A DNA stretch of 64,000 bases from an uncultured virus (IMG/VR IMGVR_UViG_3300030109_002585) (IMGVR_UViG_3300030109_002585), one strand, 5' to 3'. Shown: positions 7,985-63,754, counted from the stretch's first letter. The notes: generated from the sequence alone by a model not told the origin. Translations and numbers: made by a program.

Positions 7985-10900
7985 GTCGTATTTTTGCAGA
8001 GGGTTCAGGGGCAGTTAGGAATGTTTCAGAAACACTTAACACTAATAGTAATACCACATTAACTAATGTTGGTGGAGTTTATTATATTGGTATGGGGGTA
8101 ACAGGCACAGGTATTCCTGATAATACATATGTTACTGCTACTTCATTGGGTTCGGATGAATTAACTATATCTCAAGCCGCTACTGCAACTGCCGAAATAT
8201 CCGCAACATTTAACAAAACTAATTATGATACTGCCACTAATCCTAGATTTAAAACATTTAATGCTTATTCAGGTAGTGAAAGGCTATACACAATAGTATA
8301 TGAACAAACTCCGTCAGGAAGTGCTGAAACTTTAGTACAACAACTAGCAGGTTCCGATAGTGCAGATACCGAGTATTCTAATTTAGAAACTACTGAAGGG
8401 TTTAAGATAATGGCTTATGACTTTAATACAGGTGTAGGGTTAGAATTATCTATGAATTTAACTAATGATAATTACTTTGTGTTGGTTCATTCCGACGATT
8501 ATACCCAACATCATTTCGCTAAAATAACTTCCACTATTACAGAAAATAATACTACTAATGGAGGAACAGTGGAAAATACTGTGGTTGGTTTTGAATTTGA
8601 ACCAAAATTAGGAACAGAGATAGAAAGAGATACTAAGTTTATGGTATTTAAGGGACCACCCGTTGCTGATACTGCAAGAGCATGTAAGTTATTAGCAGTA
8701 TCGGCAGGGATTAAAAAGGATTTACAAAATGACTTAGTATGTGCAAAGCCTTTATTTTATTTCTTTAATGATAACTTAGACAAAGATAATCAATTAGACC
8801 ACAATACTAAGTATTTTATGAAGTTCTTAGGAGCAAATGCTACCACTGTCACTCCTAGCGTAACGAATACATTTGTTACTGTAAGTGATAATAAAGCAGT
8901 AATAAAAGATTATAGTAAATATACTCACAATATAAAAATAGTTGACAATCTTAAAAATATGGATTATCCAGCCTACAAAGAAGGGGGAACTAATTTACCA
9001 TTAGCACTAGTTAATGAATGGAATGGAACCAATACTCACCCTACAACTGTTCCTTCAGTATTTACGGATTATAATGATTGTTTTCCTAATGCTAGAAGAG
9101 ATAGTGATTTAGATATTTCTTCCACTGCGGCATTAAGTGGTGCGGGTCAATCAGCACAAGTATTTACAGGACCAATTAGATATGTTCATTATGACTTTTC
9201 ACCTACAAGAGCAAATAAAGCATACAATGTATTCGATTTAAATGTATTAGATTCTTCGGAAAGCAGAGGTTCGTTTTTAGAATGTAAAATGGTGGATAAT
9301 AAAAGACTGTTAGATTCTAAATTAAAAAGATTAGATAAAATTAGAGTTAGGCATAGACTACATAAAGGAATCTTTAATGATTGGTTTGCATTAAAAGCAA
9401 CGATAAAATCTTCTTTAGGTTCTAATGAATATAGATTTACTACCGAATATGATTTAGATACCATGTTTAATGTAGGAGATGAAGTTAAAATAGGAACAGG
9501 TGCTAGTGCGCCAATTTTAATTATCGAAACAATAGACGCTATTAATAATTCAGGAACCACAGGAAAAGAACAAGATATTACCTTTAGAGCAGTAAGTCGA
9601 ATAGAAGGGACAGGGCTATTTGGTAGTAGTGGATATACTTTATCAGAAGGTGCTGTTATTTACAGAAGGGCTTGGAATAATACAGATAAAACCCTTTTAA
9701 CTACATTTGATATAATAGAAAATAGACACAATAATTTATATGTTAAATTAATATCCAGCGATTTTGGTTTCTTAGAAGCCAGTGTTACTAATTCAGATGC
9801 TAATAAACAACTATTAACTTTAAGTTTTGCAGGTACAAGTCATAGTGGTTCCGATACTGCGTTAGATTACATGGATGGCTCTTTTTACATAGAAGTGGAA
9901 AAGTTTTCGGGTGCTATTGAAAAAATACACAAGACAAAGAAAGACGGACAAACTATATTTACAATCGCAGGTAGGTCCGAAGTTAGAAAACTATTAGGCC
10001 CAATTGTAAATAAAAATACATTACATTCAGAAGACATTATTTATTCAACTAATAGTCCTTATGAAAGGTTATTTTATGCAGGTAGTGGTGTAGCGGCTAC
10101 TTGTTCGTTTAATAGTAAATTAGTAGTTTGTTCTGGAACACATAGTTTGGCGGAAGGTGATGATATTTACTTATTAGGCGGTGGAAATAGTGACACTGTT
10201 TCTTATATTGGAAGAGTTGATGTTTTGGGTGGCTTGGATGGAGATGGCGACCCCGATGGCAGTAATTCCACCACAAGAGTAGTTTTGGAAGAAAACTCTT
10301 TAGCAGAATCTAATGAGGGTACGGGCGCACATATTCTTTTGCGAAGTCATTCAAATTATTATGTTTTTAATAAAGCACTTTCTTCTAACAGAGCAGTGGA
10401 TTCTGTTTCCACTTTATCGGGAGCATCTTCTAAAGGACTATTTTTTACAGGAGGCACAAGTCAAAATTTAGGAGGAACGGAGACAGGTTCTTTAATAGGG
10501 ACTAGTTGTAGCACTAATCCAAAGGCTAAAGGATTTTATTTAAGCGATTGTTTATCTATTTTATCCGATGGTAAGTTTCAAGCCAGATTAGATGATAATG
10601 CCACAGGTACTACAACTGCCACAGATAAAACTTATCAAACATTTGATACGGTTAATACTTTATTAGATTTCACCGTATTATCTCAAACAAGAACGGATAA
10701 TAGAACAGTTGTGGAATTAGCCCCGTACATACCTTTAACTTTAGGAAGAGTTGATATTAATTATGCAAATGTTAAAGACACTACATTTAATGCTACTACT
10801 TTAGGAGTAGTCGGTGCAAGCACTATCGGTGATATGAGTTTTGTCACTACTGCCGCAAGTGCTAGTTATAATGCGTTATCCACTACGGCAAGTGCTAGAA

Positions 10901-52950: not shown

Positions 52951-54384
52951 TCAACTCCTTGGTTTTGGTCCGCAATAGAATAGATTCTTCTTTGCTCTAG
53001 TAATTGCTACATAGCAAATGTTCCTCTCTTCTTTAGGATTGGTTGCTCTCGGATGAGGCATTCTTTCAGTAGCAAGGATATACACATTATCAGCCTCAAG
53101 ACCCTTAGCCTTGTGAACAGTTGATAGCATGATTTCACCCTTGTCATTGTTATCGAATACCCTCTTAATTTCATTGACTATTCCACCAACAGTGGTAGCC
53201 ATTGTTGCAAAAATCTTCAAACACTCAAACTTGTCTTCAAGGTTGTTTGCTTGATTAACCTTATCAGCCGCAATCAACTTATCATAAGTAAACTTGAAGT
53301 CCTGTGCTAGTAATTCTGAAAACTCTTCAGCACCCATACTATCATTCTTAGTAATCTTTCTAACACCATTGATTAGTCCTTTAGTCATATCTCGACCAAG
53401 AACATATGCTGACTTACCCTGAAGGATTAAGTCATAGAATGCTGAAACTAAAGGAGCATTATATCGACATAGAACCATGTCACCCTCTTGAGGATTAAAT
53501 GGTGCATTTTCGACAACTCTTCCGTCTTCAGCATCAGAACGGCAACTAAAGTTTGTTACATATCTATTTGCTTCAGAAACGACTGTTTTAGGACATCTAA
53601 ATGTTTGACTTAAAGTAAAACGCTTGATTTCTCTATCGCCACCATTAAGTCTTGCAACAAACATGTCCATTGAATTTGAATCTGCTCCACGGAATCCGTA
53701 AATTGCCTGATTAGGGTCGCCTACAATAATACACCTGCCGTTTACAACACATCTTTGAATCAACTCTCTTTGCATTTCATTGAAGTCTTGTGCTTCATCG
53801 ACAAAAAGAGTATCGAAGGTAGGTAATGGCATGTTTAGCATCAAAGGTAGCCAAATCATATCATCAAAATCAATCAAGTTAGTATTTTGCATACATTGAT
53901 TAAGAATAGCCGGAATAGCATCTAAAGCGATTACTTCTTCTCTATCCGAACTAAATTCAATTTGGTATTCATCAATCAATTGATTAATAGCCTTACTATC
54001 ATTCCAACCTGTCATTGAACCTTTAATTAGGCTAATTAATTTAACTAATGGCTGTGCGTAAAAGTCACGACCTAGAATATCATCAATAATATTCTTTACC
54101 TTGAAGTTATTTACTTTGGTTTTGATACCTGCGGCTCTTAATGCGGCAAATCCTAAAGCATGGAAAGTTTTTGCTTCAACATCATTAGGAAGTCTTTCTC
54201 CTAATTCAGTTGCTATTGACTTATTAAATGCCAAAAACGCTTTCTTGTTTCCACTATCTCTATTCGCTCCTTCAACAATAGTGAAAGTTTTACCAACACC
54301 GGCTCCCGCATCAACTATGATGTGTGAGTTACCGTATTCTATTTCTTCCCATATTGCCTTTTGTTCTATTGTTCCATTTATCAT
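52951..54384 (-). CDS. UvrD/Rep-family SF1 helicase
   Basis: AGAGVGKT, VDEAQD, GDPNQAIYGFRGA, TVHKAKGLE and YVAITRA motifs. Confidence 0.93.
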   Translation of the reverse strand: MINGTIEQKAIWEEIEYGNSHIIVDAGAGVGKTFTIVEGANRDSGNKKAFLAFNKSIATELGERLPNDVEAKTFHALGFAALRAAGIKTKVNNFKVKNIIDDILGRDFYAQPLVKLISLIKGSMTGWNDSKAINQLIDEYQIEFSSDREEVIALDAIPAILNQCMQNTNLIDFDDMIWLPLMLNMPLPTFDTLFVDEAQDFNEMQRELIQRCVVNGRCIIVGDPNQAIYGFRGADSNSMDMFVARLNGGDREIKRFTLSQTFRCPKTVVSEANRYVTNFSCRSDAEDGRVVENAPFNPQEGDMVLCRYNAPLVSAFYDLILQGKSAYVLGRDMTKGLINGVRKITKNDSMGAEEFSELLAQDFKFTYDKLIAADKVNQANNLEDKFECLKIFATMATTVGGIVNEIKRVFDNNDKGEIMLSTVHKAKGLEADNVYILATERMPHPRATNPKEERNICYVAITRAKKNLFYCGPKPRS

Positions 54385-55215: not shown

Positions 55216-55329
55216 ATTATCATATCTCTGCCCAGTTTGTCGGGCAAACTATCCATAGGTTAGCCATATATAAGGAGAGGGAAAGCAATTATTAGCCATT
55301 AAAATCCATTTTAAAATACGCTTAACTTT

Positions 55330-55700
55330 TTATTAACCGGATTATTTTCGGAGAAATGTTGATTATTTTCGGATTAAATATTATTCCACCGGAAAAAAGA
55401 GCGGAAAAATAATACATTGAGAAACTTCAGGGTAATGTTACACTACCCTTTAGTTTCTAATGGTCTAGACATTATTCCATTATTCCACTCCACAAAGGGG
55501 GGTCACTAACCAAGAGAGATAGATTAGCCCTTAGAAACTCAAGGGTAATGTAATACACTACCTAAGAGAAATGAGAGGGGGTGGTGAAGTAGTGTATGTA
55601 TGTAATGGAATAATGGAATAATGGAATGTAATTAATATCTTAGGGGTAGTGTTACACTACCCTCTAGTTTCTTCGATTCTTTTTCCAAACCACTGTGGAA
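55330..55700. repeat. Cluster of palindromes and iterated repeats (candidate origin, terminus or injection-stop signal)
   Basis: gggta(a/g)tgttacactaccc palindromes at about 55430 and 55644, an inverted copy at 55531-55553, and attattcc/ggaataat iterations. Confidence 0.65.
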
Positions 55701-55921
55701 ACTTCGGTGGAAACATCTTTTCCATTGTATATTATATTGTATATCATATTGATATTGAATACTATACCATAATTATACGGTCAATTGAAACACATAGTAA
55801 ATAATAGGGTATTAATATGGAGTGTATTTATTGATACCATTTAATCGCTCGATAACAGTATGTAGTTTGGTTGTAGTGGCTTTGATTAACGGAAACCCTA
55901 TCAAAAAAAAAAGGAAAAAAC

Positions 55922-55960
55922 CGATACTAGAGGACCAATGTAAGTCATCCTCTAGTATCG
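55922..55960. terminator. Hairpin with the conserved loop ccaatgtaagtca, copy 1
   Basis: 13-bp perfect stem flanked by A- and T-tracts. Confidence 0.7.
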
Positions 55961-55980
55961 AGTTTTTTTTCAGTAGTCAA

Positions 55981-56568: not shown

Positions 56569-56744
56569 CAATAATGACTTATTCCTTGGTTTATGTAGGG
56601 TACTCCAAAGTTCATACCATATGGTTGTAGTGTCCTTTGAATAACGGAATGCCCCATAAAAAAAGCGAGAAGCCGAAAATAGAAGGTAAAACAAAAAAAC
56701 CTTCTATTTTCGACCCCTCTAGAGGTGTTATGAGTATTTCCTCT

Positions 56745-57335
56745 TCAATAGTAGTGGGCTACCATATTGCGTAGGTTGAATGTCTTAATCATAATAGTTA
56801 AGACTTCCAGAGGGTCGAACCAATCTTCAACCTCTTTAACATCATTGTAGTTGTTACTGTATTGGTTGCAACCACATAATACCGTAATACTACCTACTTC
56901 ATCACCAAATTCATAGAATCTGATACTAAACATCATTTGGTCACCATTTCCAAGGCCATCCCACTCTCGTCTAGTGTGGTATGAAGTAATTGTTGCTTGA
57001 TATTGTTGAGATGTTGGTTTTCGTACTCCGTATTTAGTAACATAGCCATAAGAATCCCTTCTAATATCAACTAATAGGTGTGGGTGAATATAATCTAGCA
57101 AAGTGTGAATATCACTGCCAAAAGATGAATTCAAGTCCAACATACCTTCTCCTGTGTCGCATTCCCAGTCTTTACCATTGGAATCTTTAGTAAACTCATG
57201 TAGTCCAAATTCTGAACCTGTGGAGTATTCTTCCTGCAATTTTTCGATTTTATCTAGTAATTCTTGTTCTTGACCTCTAAAAACTGTTTTTACTTCTTTT
57301 AAGCCGTTTTTCTCTATTATTATTCCATTAACCAT
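56745..57335 (-). CDS. Hypothetical protein
   Basis: 196-aa ORF between repeat copies. Confidence 0.6.
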   Translation of the reverse strand: MVNGIIIEKNGLKEVKTVFRGQEQELLDKIEKLQEEYSTGSEFGLHEFTKDSNGKDWECDTGEGMLDLNSSFGSDIHTLLDYIHPHLLVDIRRDSYGYVTKYGVRKPTSQQYQATITSYHTRREWDGLGNGDQMMFSIRFYEFGDEVGSITVLCGCNQYSNNYNDVKEVEDWFDPLEVLTIMIKTFNLRNMVAHYY

Positions 57336-57510
57336 TGTTAATCCCTCTTATATTGTAAATTATAGGTGCTTTATCTAGGGTATGTCAAAGTAGCATACCA
57401 TATGGTTGCATCTTTGAATGTAACCCTAGTTTTTAAAAAAAAGAGAAAAATGCCGGTCTTTCCCGACTGTCACCTCTAGTCTAAGGGGCGAGGTTTACCC
57501 CATGTTTGCG

Positions 57511-57759
57511 TCATGATTCAGCAGTGTCCTGTTCTGCTGGGAGTGTTTCGTCTTCATCATCGCAAGCGTCTTTTAATTCTTTCCAATTGATGCAATTAAA
57601 ATCCATCATGTCAGTATAGAAACCAGTATAGCCAATGTCTTTAATTCCATGTAAAAAGACCGTTTCTATCGTTTCTTCGATATATTCAACATCGCTCACA
57701 GTTACGGGGTCAAACCAAAGGCTCACAAGCCAAGTTGCTCTATTTGTCCAGCCATTCAT
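57511..57759 (-). CDS. Hypothetical phage protein (NGWTNRATW type)
   Basis: 82-aa acidic ORF between repeat copies. Confidence 0.6.
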   Translation of the reverse strand: MNGWTNRATWLVSLWFDPVTVSDVEYIEETIETVFLHGIKDIGYTGFYTDMMDFNCINWKELKDACDDEDETLPAEQDTAES

Positions 57760-57874
57760 ATTATCACTTAATAATATTATAAAATTATGAATATATAGGG
57801 TACTCCAAAGAGCGTACCATATGGTAGTAGTCTTCTTTGTCTTTTGACTACTACCACATAAAAAAATAAAAAAA

Positions 57875-58335
57875 AGAGAAACGCCGCCTACTCCAACACT
57901 CGAATCACCGCTTCATCAGTTTCCCGCCAATTCGCCATGGCTCCTTGGACTCTGTTTACTTTTTGAAGACTTACAACGCATGTTTCGGCTTTGTCTCTCT
58001 ATGGTTTATTCCGGCTTACGCCATAGGAATGTAAAAGGTGTTGGACGGGCTATCTTTTGGATTCCCGCATTGTGAGTGGATTATCTTGTACCACTAAGTT
58101 TGAAAGTGCGCTATGGCATTTCATATATGAGGTCACAAACTACACAATCTATTCATTGACAGTCAATCAATGCCCTTTTGGGGAACATAGGTCAAGAGCC
58201 ACTATTCTAACTCATTTGAGCATCGAATAATGGTTAAACTCGCCACCACAGCGATTAGTGTATGCCTTACTCCCTTCCAAGAGCATTCGGCCACCAACTT
58301 ATCCCAAGAACCCGCTAAAGTCGCTTGAGACAATA
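57875..58335 (-). ncRNA. Candidate structured non-coding RNA (about 460 nt)
   Basis: No ORF of 60 aa or more; higher GC; several hairpins; TATA upstream and T-tract downstream on the minus strand. Confidence 0.45.
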
Positions 58336-58440
58336 ATAAGCACATAATACCCCTATATAGGGTCTTTCAAAGTTAATACCATATGGTTTGGTAGGTCACT
58401 TTGATGATGACCGGTACGAACCATAAAAAAAAAGAAAATA

Positions 58441-58477
58441 AATGATGCAGGGCCAATGTAAGTCACCCTGCATCATT
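58441..58477. terminator. Hairpin with the conserved loop ccaatgtaagtca, copy 2
   Basis: 12-bp perfect stem with a different sequence from copy 1. Confidence 0.7.
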
Positions 58478-58497
58478 TTTATGCCTAAATCTGAGAA

Positions 58498-58821
58498 TCA
58501 CTCAGAAACATGAATTGATTCAATAGTCAATCCGTGTTCTTTGACTTCATCTCTAAGCATGTGTACTGTTGCAACACCATTACCACGGATAGCACCTTTC
58601 ACAGTGGTCGCCGTTGTGATGTTTTGACAAGCAATCTCGATTATCTTATCTAACATGCGTTGCTGTGCTTTTTTCAGAGAAGTATATACTCCAATCTGCC
58701 TTGTCTGTTCCTTTCCTCTCCTATCAGTAAAGTTTCTGATTAGTCTGAAAACTCGGTTATTCTCTATCCTCACTTTTTCACCTATTAATGTGAATAATAC
58801 AGTATTAAATAGGGTACTCAA
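58498..58821 (-). CDS. Hypothetical protein (true start probably near 58780)
   Basis: ORF between repeat copies. Confidence 0.5.
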   Translation of the reverse strand: MSTLFNTVLFTLIGEKVRIENNRVFRLIRNFTDRRGKEQTRQIGVYTSLKKAQQRMLDKIIEIACQNITTATTVKGAIRGNGVATVHMLRDEVKEHGLTIESIHVSE

Positions 58822-58945
58822 AGTTCATACCATATGGTTGTAACTTTGTGCATTACGAAGTAACTTGACCCTATATAGGGGTATGTACCCCTAATAATTG
58901 CTTCAAAGGGATTGAAGTGGTATTAGGGGTTACTTAATACAGGAG

Positions 58946-59482
58946 ATGAAAAAAATGGACATGGAAAAATGGACTCAACGAAGCACAGATATTAGAGAAT
59001 GGCTCAAGCACAATGATGCTGGGGCTATGGCTACACTAATCGAACAAACCCTAGATGCGGGCGACAATTCTGACAACATGGAAGAATTAGACCGTTTTTG
59101 GGAGGCAGTAAGAGCAATATGCAAAACCTTACCAAACACACCTATCAAGCAGGGCCGTGGCTCAACACTAGCACCGGCAATTCAGGCGTGTGTGGATGGT
59201 GTAGTGAATCGCATACAAACTGCCTTTGCAGTAATTGGTGACTCTGACCTAATTTTGGAAGTTATGCTTCCACACGGAAAGACAGGCGGCGCATATGCCG
59301 ATATTGACGCTTTTGCAAACGATATGGCTACAAAAGCACAAAGGGTACTAAAGGCGGCATTGAAAGATGGCCGTTGGAATGGTACAATGACTGAAGATGG
59401 ACTAACCGGACTTACCCCGCCGGTCAAGCAAACTTCAGACAATGAAGAAAGTGACGAGGACTCAACGGAGGAATCGCACTGA
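58946..59482 (+). CDS. Hypothetical protein, paralog family A (opposite orientation)
   Basis: GGAG RBS; clear similarity to 54733..55215. Confidence 0.7.
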   Translation: MKKMDMEKWTQRSTDIREWLKHNDAGAMATLIEQTLDAGDNSDNMEELDRFWEAVRAICKTLPNTPIKQGRGSTLAPAIQACVDGVVNRIQTAFAVIGDSDLILEVMLPHGKTGGAYADIDAFANDMATKAQRVLKAALKDGRWNGTMTEDGLTGLTPPVKQTSDNEESDEDSTEESH

Positions 59483-59741
59483 TACTCACTTCAATCCCTT
59501 TGTAGCCACAATCAAACTCCAACGGCGATTTGCACGGATTGAAAAGTCAAGACAGTCGGACCGGCTCACTTGCGTGAAATGCAAATTAGGAGCAGGGTGG
59601 ATTGATGGAAAATACCTAACGGACCCATCAATCCACCTTGTAGCCACTTTTTTTATGAGGTTGTGTTCCCGATGGTGTTTCAAAGTACACACACAACCAT
59701 ATGGTATTGATTGCTTTGTGTCAATACCCCGTCAATAAAAA

Positions 59742-59782
59742 AAAATAATAGAGAGCCGATGTAAGTCACTCTCTATTATTTT
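59742..59782. terminator. Hairpin with the conserved loop ccgatgtaagtca, copy 3
   Basis: 14-bp perfect stem with a third distinct sequence. Confidence 0.7.
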
Positions 59783-59939
59783 CTTTATTTTGGACACCCA
59801 CTATGGCACTTTAGACGACCATGTTTCATCAGTTATCTTCAATACTATCTTCATGGAGATAACCTGATGAGTATTCGTTTCCCCGTCATTTTTCTGTACC
59901 AAACTATTCGGTCAGATTGTGCCACAGTGAGTGTGGAAT

Positions 59940-60155
59940 CTATTCATCCCATAAAGCGGCCCTGAAATGTTTTTCGCTGAATGTGTGGCTATCTTCCTTT
60001 AGCATAACGCACATCTCATCAATTAAGTCTTCATGGCGGATTAGGCCATCAGACATAGTAACATGATTGATTACTTTCACTAATGCGAGATAATGTCTTT
60101 TCTGAAACTTGCTCATTCTTCTTCCTCTCCTGATAGGTCCAAGTCCCGAATACAC
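59940..60155 (-). CDS. Hypothetical protein (likely start MSKFQK)
   Basis: Coupled to the upstream ORF. Confidence 0.5.
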   Translation of the reverse strand: MYSGLGPIRRGRRMSKFQKRHYLALVKVINHVTMSDGLIRHEDLIDEMCVMLKEDSHTFSEKHFRAALWDE

Positions 60156-60589
60156 AATACAGCCGCATGGCGGTATTTATCGAATGCGTCGTCATTATCG
60201 AATAGCGTTTCAGCCATTTTATCCAATGAAACTGATACTATCGGTTTTATGTCGTCATCCTTAACCTTAATCAAGTGAAGTTGTTTCTGTAACTTCAACA
60301 ATTTATTGACTCTGCCTCTAATCCATGCACGGTCAATCATTTTGTTTCCTGTGATACTAACTTCATCTATTTGGACGATTCCGACATCTTTTCCAAAATC
60401 AACATAATCAACGCATGTAATTGTTAATTTGTCAAGGCTCATAGTCCATTCAATATCAGTGCTTGTATCTCTTTCATTCCACATGCTAACCATTGTGTTA
60501 GTATCTGTGAATTGATATACCATTTGTTTCTTGATAGTGCCGTCATTATACACCGTATCTCCGTAGGTCGTTGTTATATCCATATTCAT
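60113..60589 (-). CDS. Hypothetical protein
   Basis: 158 aa; GGAG RBS; downstream of repeat copy 7. Confidence 0.6.
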   Translation of the reverse strand: MNMDITTTYGDTVYNDGTIKKQMVYQFTDTNTMVSMWNERDTSTDIEWTMSLDKLTITCVDYVDFGKDVGIVQIDEVSITGNKMIDRAWIRGRVNKLLKLQKQLHLIKVKDDDIKPIVSVSLDKMAETLFDNDDAFDKYRHAAVLCIRDLDLSGEEEE

Positions 60590-61384
60590 TAACTCCTTTG
60601 AATAATAGCAATATTACTCTCTTTATAGGGTTGCACAAAGTAGCAACCATATGGTACTATTATGAGATATTGTTGTCTATATAGATGGGGTATATGAGCA
60701 TTGTTTTCTTTTAGAATGAAATGTTTCTATAATAAAACATAACACTTTAATTGAGTTGAAGGGATTATTTAGGTGATTTTCGCTTAAACTAAAACTCACC
60801 TATATATTTACAAATTTATCTATATAGTACCACATAGCATTATACAACCATATGGCTTTGTCCAAATTTTTAATATTGCTATATCAGTCTTATAATGCCA
60901 ACATTACATCATTAATTCATTAATATGAGCATTTGAAGGTTAATTATCTCGCCATTATACCGGCATACTTATACCATAAACAGGACTCGCTTAATACGGG
61001 ATTGATTGTGACTGATGCGGATGATGTATCTAAACTATTAAAAGACATAGTTGATGCTATTACACCAATACTTTCGGATATTAAATCTAATACTAAATCA
61101 GCATTGAATATACAAGTAAGTCAGGCAAATAAGGTTAAATTAAAAGAAATAGCAAAGAAACTTGAATCATTAAAGAGCAAGATTATACCATTATATCATT
61201 TAGATTATAAATCAGGTTCAACTACACAAACTTCATTAAATATAAAATAACATTAAATCATTAAGATTTTATTCTGGGAATACATAAGTTAATTAAAAAA
61301 GGCTGACGCTAGTGCCAAAAAAATTCCGCCACAATTTTTCAAAAACAAATTCTATTTTAAGCAATTAACAGGAAAAGGGTTATT

Positions 61385-61918: not shown

Positions 61919-62086
61919 ATGACACGCTGTAATTACTTAGAAGACTGGTTCGATAATGAATCTGCTAAATTGGACAAAGTTGAAAATGACTATGGTAAGT
62001 GTTTAGTTACAGGTCAAAAGAAAAAGGCTACTACTTTAACTAAGGCTCAAGCATGGGCTAAAGTGTTTAGGAGGAATAAAGAATGA
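61919..62086 (+). CDS. Small hypothetical protein
   Basis: Likely start MTRCNYLEDW. Confidence 0.45.
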   Translation: MTRCNYLEDWFDNESAKLDKVENDYGKCLVTGQKKKATTLTKAQAWAKVFRRNKE

Positions 62087-62364
62087 GTTGGGAAGATATA
62101 GTGAAAGTATCAATTACAGAGGGTCTATTCAATCAGACAAAAGAAAAGATGAAAGACATAAAAGCAAAGTTAAGTAGTTTAGAGAAGAATAGTTATACGA
62201 AAACATCTTTAGAAAATATAGTTGATATTTATGAACAAGCAAAGAAGGCTCATAGGGAAAATAATAAAAAACTACTTGGATTTCATCTTAGAACAATGAC
62301 AATAATAGGAAAAGAAATATCAGACTACTTTGATGCACAGGATATAGGAGTTGTCAAGGAATGA
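62083..62364 (+). CDS. MxW-motif hypothetical protein
   Basis: Starts MSWEDIVK. Confidence 0.6.
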   Translation: MSWEDIVKVSITEGLFNQTKEKMKDIKAKLSSLEKNSYTKTSLENIVDIYEQAKKAHRENNKKLLGFHLRTMTIIGKEISDYFDAQDIGVVKE

Positions 62365-63074
62365 ATTGGAAAAATATACTAAAGAGAGAGAAACCACCCC
62401 TTGTCCCTGATGAAGCGAGGTTTAATATTCCTACTGGAAATTTAAATAATCCTCCTGAAAGCAGGTATTTTGAAAATGCACAGGTGCATTGGATGGAATC
62501 TGTTAAATTTGTAGGAGAAGAGTTAGAAAAGCGATATATACCTACTAAACAACACTTAGAAGCCATAAAAAAACCTTATAGGATAAAGTATAACGAAAGA
62601 TTGCGTAGTAGCCAACCTGAAAATTTGTTTGACTTCCATGCGACACTTTCAGATGAACAAGTGGAAAGCAGAAGGAAAGCGGCAACTGCGGCTTATAGAG
62701 TGGCCGAAGAAGCAATCAGAAAGGTTATTGACCCTTACATGGAGTTTTTGGGAAGTTGGGATAAAAAGAAAAACTTACAAGAAGCGAATAAAGAATGGGA
62801 ATATCTAACCCATAGAGTTATGCTCACTGTTCACACCGCATTAAACAATTTATTCCCAACAGTGGAAGACGCATACAGGTCTAGAAAGTTAAATGGTTTC
62901 TTGCATTGGAAAGGTGAATACTATCAGAATCTAATGAATAAGAAACTACCTGATACTATGGAACAAATTAAACCAGCGAAGAAACAACCATCGAAGAAAG
63001 AGCCTCCAAAGAAAAGAGACTATATGGCTGAAAGAAAGGAAAGAATAGAGCGTCTTAGGAGGGATAGGAAATGA
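62361..63074 (+). CDS. MxW-motif hypothetical protein
   Basis: Starts MNWKNILK. Confidence 0.6.
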   Translation: MNWKNILKREKPPLVPDEARFNIPTGNLNNPPESRYFENAQVHWMESVKFVGEELEKRYIPTKQHLEAIKKPYRIKYNERLRSSQPENLFDFHATLSDEQVESRRKAATAAYRVAEEAIRKVIDPYMEFLGSWDKKKNLQEANKEWEYLTHRVMLTVHTALNNLFPTVEDAYRSRKLNGFLHWKGEYYQNLMNKKLPDTMEQIKPAKKQPSKKEPPKKRDYMAERKERIERLRRDRK

Positions 63075-63454
63075 GTTGGGAAGATATAATGAAAAAGAAT
63101 CCTATGCGCTCAAGGTCGAATGCTGAAAAGAAAAAGAGGCGGGAAAACAAAAAGACTCTTGAAAGATTAAAAGGGGATTTAAGTTTTGATAAGGAATTGC
63201 TTCAGCAGTTGATAAGAAGAAGAGATGAACCTAATCGCAGAAAATCACAATATGGTGTAAAGTCAACTCATCGGTATTTAGATTCTGACGGAAGAGAGAA
63301 AGAGAGGTCTAAAACAGAAGCAGAAATGAAGAAAGAAAGGGCTGATAATATAAAAGAATACCAAGCCTTTTTAGATAAAATGAATAGTAAAATTAGACCT
63401 CTTGAAAAAGAGATTAAAGAAACCGAATCCCAAATCAAAGAATTAGAGGGATAG
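63071..63454 (+). CDS. MxW-motif basic coiled-coil protein
   Basis: Starts MSWEDIMKK. Confidence 0.6.
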   Translation: MSWEDIMKKNPMRSRSNAEKKKRRENKKTLERLKGDLSFDKELLQQLIRRRDEPNRRKSQYGVKSTHRYLDSDGREKERSKTEAEMKKERADNIKEYQAFLDKMNSKIRPLEKEIKETESQIKELEG

Positions 63455-63457
63455 GAT

Positions 63458-63754
63458 ATGAGTTGGAAGGATTCACTAAAGAAGTATCGAACCAATGTAA
63501 GTGGTTCCGGTGCGGTCCCTTTACAAGATGTTCAGAAAGACCATAAAGAATTAAGTCTGAAACTTAGAGGAATTATGGGTGCAGTTGGTAGTCTTAGAAA
63601 TAATATGCCACGAAGCGTTAGTAAAGTAATGGCTAAGTTAGATGAAATCAAAGAAGAAATATATAAAACAGAACAATTACTTGATTCTATGACTGAAGAA
63701 TATGACAGTATAGATAGAGATAATTGGGACAAGACAATGGAGGATTTACAATGA
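63458..63754 (+). CDS. MxW-motif coiled-coil protein
   Basis: Starts MSWKDSLKK. Confidence 0.6.
   Translation: MSWKDSLKKYRTNVSGSGAVPLQDVQKDHKELSLKLRGIMGAVGSLRNNMPRSVSKVMAKLDEIKEEIYKTEQLLDSMTEEYDSIDRDNWDKTMEDLQ

Follow-up and report, generated by a model that had tools for sequence, protein, structure and literature searches.

A probable stand-alone manA-type RNA gene with two self-complementary loops in a magrovirus-like archaeal virus

Main

We analysed a 64,000-nt stretch of DNA from an uncultured virus (IMG/VR IMGVR_UViG_3300030109_002585; hereafter the window) and found that a slot of about 460 nt, read on the minus strand, is very probably a real, stand-alone gene for a structured RNA of the manA type. 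The first ~300 nt of this RNA are, by covariance-model matches and comparison with relatives, an expanded and divergent manA-type RNA that falls below the Rfam threshold. New here are the enlargement of the core, the extra 3′ domain, the occurrence as a stand-alone gene and the carriage by an archaeal virus. A manA-type core combined with two loops that have been kept self-complementary leads us to predict that the RNA binds its own copies, and on balance we lean towards a stand-alone, self-associating manA-type RNA, rather than a leader, as the reading of the whole element. That self-association is the mode of action of the RNA is a more tentative proposal, to which the comparative evidence gives, in our estimate, slightly less than an even chance.

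The manA family (RF01745; Rfam 14 paper, PMC7779021) has been an orphan riboswitch candidate since 2010, when its members were described from putative 5′ untranslated regions (5′ UTRs) and as riboswitch candidates (Weinberg et al. 2010, PMC2864571). The carriers named in the literature that we drew on are cyanophages, gamma-proteobacteria including Photobacterium, and marine metagenomes. In 2026, manA was put forward as a case of RNA-only cage formation in vitro: according to an unreviewed preprint (July 2026, bioRxiv 10.64898/2026.07.01.735769), manA RNAs of <200 nt assemble into 8-mers, 10-mers and a 60-mer cage as seen by cryo-EM, and the 60-subunit cage is built from pentamers via kissing loops.

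A non-coding cassette with its own promoter and terminator signals

An initial sequence-only reading of the window had singled out positions 57875–58335 as a slot between two copies of a dyad that lacks any open reading frame (ORF) of at least 60 amino acids. This description is borne out, as the ORFs that overlap the slot encode 31, 57, 47 and 32 amino acids, and a 10-nt perfect dyad is present on both sides, at 57816–57825 and 58378–58387. The TATA element and the T-tract that the same reading had placed in the slot are both there (Table 1), and the slot is indeed richer in G+C (0.447) than its 2-kb flanks (0.391) or the window as a whole (0.354). The 10-nt dyad occurs seven times in the 64-kb window, always within 56616–60655, against an expectation of 0.05 copies, and seven copies were reached in none of 100 shuffles. 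All seven copies of the dyad-promoter element fall in one 4-kb small-gene region (56592–60669).

The upstream control element of the RNA recurs at the head of the neighbouring protein-coding cassettes, and a dimeric viral or host regulator is likely to bind the dyad. Four of the protein cassettes in the window have their start codon 33–34 nt past the same TATA motif, a spacing that implies very short leaders and that would place the start of the RNA near 58332. The TATA and oligo-T motifs of the RNA unit are also found in the protein cassettes, and their spacing would fit an archaeal-type unit, with TATA ~25 nt before the predicted start and oligo-T at the predicted end. The next dyad-promoter cassette follows 56 nt beyond the T-run. 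A neighbouring protein, encoded at 56745–57335, has no relatives in IMG/VR.

T4-type phages shuffle small genes in promoter–stem-loop cassettes. The units described here are similarly small, carry a repeated promoter element and a terminator hairpin, and vary in order and orientation between relatives. They differ in having TATA and oligo-T signals of archaeal type together with the 10-nt dyad, and in that one of the units is an RNA gene.

Table 1 Features of the RNA cassette in the window. Positions are counted from the first letter of the window; paired segments are joined by 'with'.
Feature	Position	Strand	Remarks
Upstream control element	58364–58403	−	Larger inverted repeat with the 10-nt dyad (58378–58387) at its centre
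TATA-like palindrome, 12 nt	58351–58362	−	Putative archaeal-type core promoter
Non-coding RNA, ~460 nt	57877–58332	−	Predicted ends, from promoter spacing and T-run
Expanded manA-type core, ~300 nt	58031–58330	−	RF01745 partial match and 72-pair drawing
5′ hairpin of core	58302–58330	−	
Long-range closing helix of core	58291–58299 with 58037–58044	−	
Loop-E-like hairpin of core	58264–58292	−	
Small hairpin with conserved 7-nt loop	58240–58254	−	
Long inserted hairpin	58199–58233	−	
Three-way branch	58154–58183	−	
Hairpin CAUUGA/UCAAUG	58154–58172	−	Pairing kept through both-side changes in relatives
Site 1, 10-nt perfect palindrome	58121–58130	−	Large loop of helix 58097–58141, in the core
Hairpin AGUGG/CCACU (terminal manA hairpin)	58075–58095	−	Pairing kept through both-side changes in relatives
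Hairpin GCGGG/CCCGU (extra hairpin)	58045–58068	−	Pairing kept through both-side changes in relatives
3′ domain, ~155 nt	57877–58030	−	Absent from the Rfam manA model; 43 unique copies aligned
GNRA-capped hairpin (GGC-GUAA-GCC in AUUCC/GGAAU)	58008–58030	−	In the 3′ domain
Closing helix with second loop-E-like motif	57982–57997 with 57877–57894	−	Helices 15 and 16, 97–100% paired
Site 3 hairpin, 4-bp stem, 14-nt purine-flanked loop	57927–57948	−	8-nt perfect palindrome at 57934–57941
Oligo-T run (8 T, one A, 7 T)	57860–57875	−	Putative archaeal-type terminator

The carrier is a magrovirus-like virus

The virus in the window is an archaeal tailed virus of magrovirus-like character. The best deposited relatives of its family B DNA polymerase are those of haloarchaeal tailed viruses, at 25% identity, and it also encodes a GroEL-type chaperonin, a ribonucleotide reductase, an ATP-dependent ligase and tail proteins. 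GroEL together with ribonucleotide reductase has been described for group B magroviruses (Philosof et al., PMC5434244), and the same paper assigns magroviruses to Marine Group II archaea. For the helicase gene at 52951–54384 we found 124 relatives in IMG/VR and kept 79 loci, many of them on contigs of 90–97 kb. All members of the RNA family come from marine viral or metagenome contigs; the virus of the window is magrovirus-like and not a cyanophage.

BLAST searches of deposited phages returned no match for the slot and none for a near-canonical relative; the nearest virus record (G001, 25.6 kb) also gave no match and is probably a fragment without this region. The main texts of the magrovirus papers that we searched make no mention of RNA genes, and we found no published description of this RNA. 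Within the literature searched, no RNA gene had previously been noted in a magrovirus.

The core is an expanded and divergent manA-type RNA

The sequence-only reading had interpreted the slot as a dedicated large viral non-coding RNA of unknown class. The first half of this interpretation stands, in that a dedicated, structured viral RNA is what the evidence supports. The second half does not, because manA was the only family to recur when the relatives were compared with the Rfam covariance models, and the class is therefore not unknown. Beyond manA, this search at E ≤ 10 yielded only scattered single matches far below cut-offs. No covariance-model match was obtained for other large RNAs (RNase P, SRP, tmRNA, group I and II introns, GOLLD, ROOL, OLE, raiA, HEARO and other families of Rfam 15), and no tRNA or tmRNA was found.

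At gathering thresholds the window has no match in Rfam. The window copy of the RNA has a partial RF01745 match at 58074–58294 (cmscan, 17.3 bits, E = 0.034; cut-off, 55.2 bits). Its link to manA runs through relatives. RF01745 matched three of seven loci in a first set, nine of 20 in a second set at E ≤ 1 (five of them at E ≤ 4.3 × 10−6, with a best score of 48.7 bits) and one of four viral records. In a subfamily that has the same 3′ domain and a different core, ten of 18 loci matched RF01745, all at E ≤ 4.2 × 10−10; these matches span all 192 model positions at 50.2–54.6 bits, with E values down to 2 × 10−11. The best relatives score 54.6, 54.4 and 53.9 bits, and none reaches the gathering score of 55.2 bits. 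The manA family is hereby extended beyond the reach of the Rfam threshold.

The helices of the RNA follow the order known from manA: a 5′ hairpin, a long-range closing helix and a loop-E-like hairpin, then a junction with a conserved-loop small hairpin, a terminal hairpin and a conserved 3′ tail. Both RNAs occur in marine viruses. They differ in that the core here measures ~300 nt compared with 192 model positions, because helices have been inserted, and in that a ~155-nt 3′ domain has been added. Whereas manA was described in 5′ UTRs and from cyanophages and Photobacterium, the RNA reported here sits in a cassette with its own putative promoter and terminator in an archaeal-type virus.

The canonical manA of cyanophage S-CREM1 scores 100.6 bits (PMC9964418). 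In the S-CREM1 record (9745–10643, locus L211), it is annotated between tRNA-Leu and tRNA-Asn with a spacer of 0–1 nt, and the surrounding cluster consists of tRNAs together with the wcaG and abiF RNAs. It has the look of a stand-alone RNA released by processing, not of a leader; with tRNA genes directly adjoining it on either side, it need not serve as a leader in this phage either. Our family profile, built from sequence without structure, gave two weak colinear matches inside this manA (E = 0.014 and 1.1). Cyanophage Syn9 yielded no manA match.

Compensatory changes support the fold

Four hairpins had been proposed from the window sequence, and all four are present on the minus strand. Three of them are kept through changes on both sides of the stem in relatives (Table 1). 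Single-sequence folding energy is ordinary compared with shuffles (z = −0.35 for the minus strand and +0.86 for the plus strand), so that the case for structure rests on comparison and not on stability. Of the two strands, the minus strand has the more favourable folding energy, by 22 kcal/mol.

Homologues and covariation had been put forward as a check of the initial reading, and both were obtained. Using nhmmer to collect homologues and RNAalifold on 30 full-length copies, we found 69 consensus pairs, of which 51 are compensatory, that is, changed on both sides. In slid controls, in which the 3′ partners were moved by 1–3 columns, only 18–23 pairs were compensatory. Likewise, 95.1% of cells were paired across the 69 consensus pairs compared with 42–54% in the slid controls, and the covariation score was 0.455 compared with 0.07–0.11. 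The observed values of pairing and covariation were reached by none of 500 shuffles.

The subfamily of the window aligns poorly to the other members in the 3′ half of the core. We therefore drew its core by hand after the manA plan and scored the pairs in five sequences, namely the window copy, two of its close relatives and a further two at ~70% identity. This drawing comprises 72 pairs, with 96.6% of cells paired (slid controls, 33–43%) and 24 compensatory pairs (slid controls, 1–4), representing essentially two lineages. As the drawing was made from the window sequence, the paired fraction is biased upward, and the compensatory count is the fairer figure.

These data also bear on whether the element acts as RNA at all. 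If the stretch functioned as DNA instead, for instance in replication initiation, in packaging or as an array of protein-binding sites, this would account for a conserved non-coding stretch with palindromes in a repeat-rich region. Such a reading is nonetheless very improbable: G–U intermediates and compensatory changes run through nested helices that span up to 270 nt, an RNA covariance model is matched, the minus strand is the better-folding one by the margin given above, and RNA-library contigs lie on the stretch.

A decayed protein gene or a set of conserved short peptides, both named in the sequence-only reading as outcomes that would speak against it, are scarcely credible as explanations. 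Short frames do exist, for example of 57 and 47 amino acids, and by eye the site 3 palindrome of the window holds a start codon after a purine-rich run. However, no ORF is conserved in the relatives; among 11 of them, no stop-to-stop frame is common in position or frame. The small frame at site 3 has 16 codons in the window and three in L021, and it is absent where the palindrome centre differs (both by eye). Moreover, the pattern of substitutions tracks helices, not codons.

An added and modular 3′ domain

The 3′ domain is closed by a helix that contains the second loop-E-like motif and is almost fully paired in the aligned copies (Table 1). For the helices inside it, MAFFT alignments, a column-pair scan and single-sequence folds gave no clear fold. 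L002, L003 and L019, which are nearest to the window copy in their 5′ part, have other, shorter 3′ ends, indicating that the domain is modular and not obligatory. At the one canonical locus searched, S-CREM1, the 3′-domain profile found nothing, and there is no room for the domain before the flanking tRNA.

The cassette recurs in different contexts

Searching with the window sequence alone (nhmmer), we detected the element in 11 of the 79 helicase-linked loci, and a profile search raised this to 17. Relative to the helicase, the cassette has the same orientation in six of these 17 loci and the opposite orientation in 11, which indicates that it moves as a unit. Two-part pattern scans of viral loci returned true members in 11 of 22 and 11 of 35 cases. 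The other 11 of the 22 loci were unmatched by the family profile and by eye resemble unrelated sequence; the other 24 of the 35 were rejected as non-members. In metagenomes, 47 of 64 pattern loci were true members and 17 were not, and the pattern scan of 185,579 species genomes gave eight loci with no true member among them. After removal of duplicates, 31 full-length and 26 partial unique copies remained, all marine viral or metagenomic, with a mean pairwise identity of 65% (minimum 40%); these copies share ancestry, and their counts overstate the number of independent events.

In 29 of 31 members, a dyad precedes the RNA by no more than 90 nt; in the remaining two, the contig ends there. A further dyad follows the RNA at a distance of at most 176 nt in 12 of 14 loci. 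Across 30 loci, the ORFs that come first after the RNA sort into 13 unrelated groups. With its downstream dyads and unrelated downstream ORFs, the RNA misfits the leader of a particular gene. In place of the 5′-UTR position of the original manA description, oligo-T and then a new promoter follow the RNA.

It is accordingly improbable that the RNA is a cis-acting, riboswitch-like leader that controls read-through of the T-run into the downstream cassette (gene at 57511–57759). Such a role would agree with the first description of manA, and a same-strand gene does start 118 nt beyond the RNA. Yet this gene has its own dyad and TATA promoter, the genes in its place in other loci are unrelated, and the cassette is inverted with respect to the helicase in most loci. 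In addition, the run of eight and seven T lies directly past the closing helix, with no alternative pairing seen, and the canonical manA in S-CREM1 is flanked by tRNA genes.

In the main subfamily, the RNA lacks an immediate long T-run and is instead followed by one of two conserved downstream blocks (first 100 nt past the RNA in L023, L021, L018, L146, L151, L093 and L198; likewise in L083, L097, L171, L176 and L191). One of them forms a long hairpin, and the other shares sequence with a frame of 54–79 amino acids that starts 18–87 nt after the RNA. An additional RNA element or small gene may thus be present here.

RNA libraries contain part of the slot

Part of the stretch is contained in 22 public runs from 13 studies, and 13 of these 22 runs are recorded as RNA. 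Four runs from four studies all gave contigs inside 57952–58306. The best contig is 355 nt long, with one mismatch and a word depth of 359; it stops at 57952 and omits the last ~75 nt of the RNA, which hold site 3. The flanks (57300–57951 and 58307–58900) gave no contigs in the four runs, an absence of cover that does not count as evidence, and contig ends differ between runs and are silent on the ends of the RNA. Metatranscriptome coverage with sharp ends had been suggested as a check of the slot; RNA-library contigs do lie on it, and sharp ends are beyond the reach of contigs. As contigs show no strand, ends or level, and RNA libraries can also hold DNA, expression of the RNA is partly shown.

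Two loops are kept self-complementary

Perfect palindromes of at least 6 nt are less frequent in the RNA than in shuffles (4.7 compared with 7.5 per copy), yet they cluster at three positions of the alignment. At one position the palindrome is an invariant hexamer, which the window copy lacks. At the other two, sites 1 and 3, the sequence varies and palindromy is kept.

At site 1, a palindrome of at least 6 nt is centred in a 10-column bin in 30 of the 31 full-length copies, and it measures 8–10 nt in about 30. Four versions occur in full-length copies and two more in partial relatives. The exceptions are L155, which has no palindrome, and L187, which has only a 6-mer. By eye, the palindrome is absent from the near-canonical subfamily, and in the main subfamily site 1 overlaps an intramolecular stem.

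At site 3, a perfect palindrome of at least 6 nt (range 6–16 nt) is present in 42 of 43 unique copies, the exception being copy L178, compared with 36% of shuffles of the same 40-nt windows. Palindromes of at least 8 nt are found in 29 of 43 unique copies compared with 8.7% of shuffles. The site exists in 14 versions with six different central tetramers. Once the sequences are centred on the palindrome, all 29 of 29 unique ones pair at the three innermost symmetric positions, each of which shows 2–4 pair types. Site 3 thereby shows the hallmark of a kissing-loop hairpin, an apical-loop palindrome of at least 6 nt that is kept through sequence change. By nearest-neighbour calculation, the self-duplexes are estimated at −14.6 and −9.8 kcal/mol.

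Could the palindromes be ordinary hairpin tips or protein-binding sites in a monomeric, trans-acting RNA that serves as a protein scaffold, sponge or decoy? We regard this as unlikely, albeit a serious contender. The site 3 palindrome of several relatives continues into an ordinary hairpin stem of 5–8 pairs, the two conserved loop-E-like motifs are of a kind that commonly provides protein or tertiary docking sites, and the signs that this RNA assembles are signs in its sequence. On the other hand, the tip of a hairpin neither needs a palindromic centre nor gains anything from one, yet nearly all copies have kept theirs despite the six central tetramers. The sequence of site 3 is also too variable for one protein recognition site. 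Moreover, the 8-nt palindrome in the 14-nt loop of the window class cannot pair within itself. Selection for pairing between two copies of the RNA is the simplest account of these observations.

The retroviral dimerisation-initiation hairpin has a perfect palindrome in a purine-flanked apical loop, which varies between lineages and stays self-complementary. Site 3 is alike in its loop; its context, a viral non-coding RNA, is unrelated, and its dimer is a prediction. ROOL, GOLLD, OLE and raiA are large, ornate phage-associated RNAs that multimerise. The RNA described here is likewise long, highly structured and virus-borne, with signs of self-association, but it has no covariance-model match to any of them at any threshold used. 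ROOL, GOLLD, OLE and raiA are also cited as earlier RNA-only assemblies in the manA preprint (bioRxiv 10.64898/2026.07.01.735769).

Compared with the manA homo-oligomers of that preprint, the RNA belongs to the same core family, and where assembly there depends on loop–loop (kissing) contacts, two loops are kept self-complementary here. The contacts in the preprint connect different loops (for example, L5 with L7′ and L8 with L9′), and the preprint text available to us does not mention palindromic loops. The RNAs also differ in size, <200 nt there and ~460 nt here, and our RNA is known at the level of sequence.

A model for a self-associating viral RNA

We propose that the ~460-nt RNA would be made on the minus strand, from about 58332 to 57877, under a dyad-controlled TATA promoter of the same kind that would drive the neighbouring small early-type cassettes. 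The transcript would end at the oligo-T run and would not be the leader of a particular gene. The RNA itself would be a particle that binds copies of itself via the palindromic loops at sites 1 and 3, with dimers or larger homo-oligomers as the predicted products. Going one step further, an enlarged manA-type RNA expressed from a free-standing gene might build closed multimers or cages in the infected cell through two-fold loop contacts. We consider this extension rather doubtful; if true, the virus would make an RNA-only compartment or decoy, in which the modular 3′ domain sets the geometry.

The relative of manA described here is a separate gene with a putative promoter and terminator, it is present in RNA libraries, and it occurs in viruses of a different host domain. 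Together with the loops that are kept self-complementary, this argues that the family works in trans, as a particle that associates with itself, and not as a leader. The palindromes and their natural variants allow cheap tests of whether RNA assemblies matter in nature.

Other features of the window

Three hairpins (55916–55970, 58435–58479 and 59737–59791) have different stems and a near-identical 13-nt loop. With an A-run on one side and a T-run on the other, they resemble two-way terminators with a conserved loop. A fourth copy of this hairpin is found upstream of the RNA cassette in the relative L004.

The stretch 55216–55980 extends over ~760 nt without an ORF and contains a ~40-nt unit in triplicate, with both direct and inverted copies. 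It is conserved in the same position in L004, L045, L002 and L003, the closest relatives (E = 1 × 10−58 to 1 × 10−65), with weaker matches on the opposite strand, and could be an origin or another RNA locus. Finally, 62067–63482 harbours three or four adjacent small plus-strand ORFs with a near-identical ribosome-binding region and near-identical first 8–10 codons, which look like a paralogous small-gene array.
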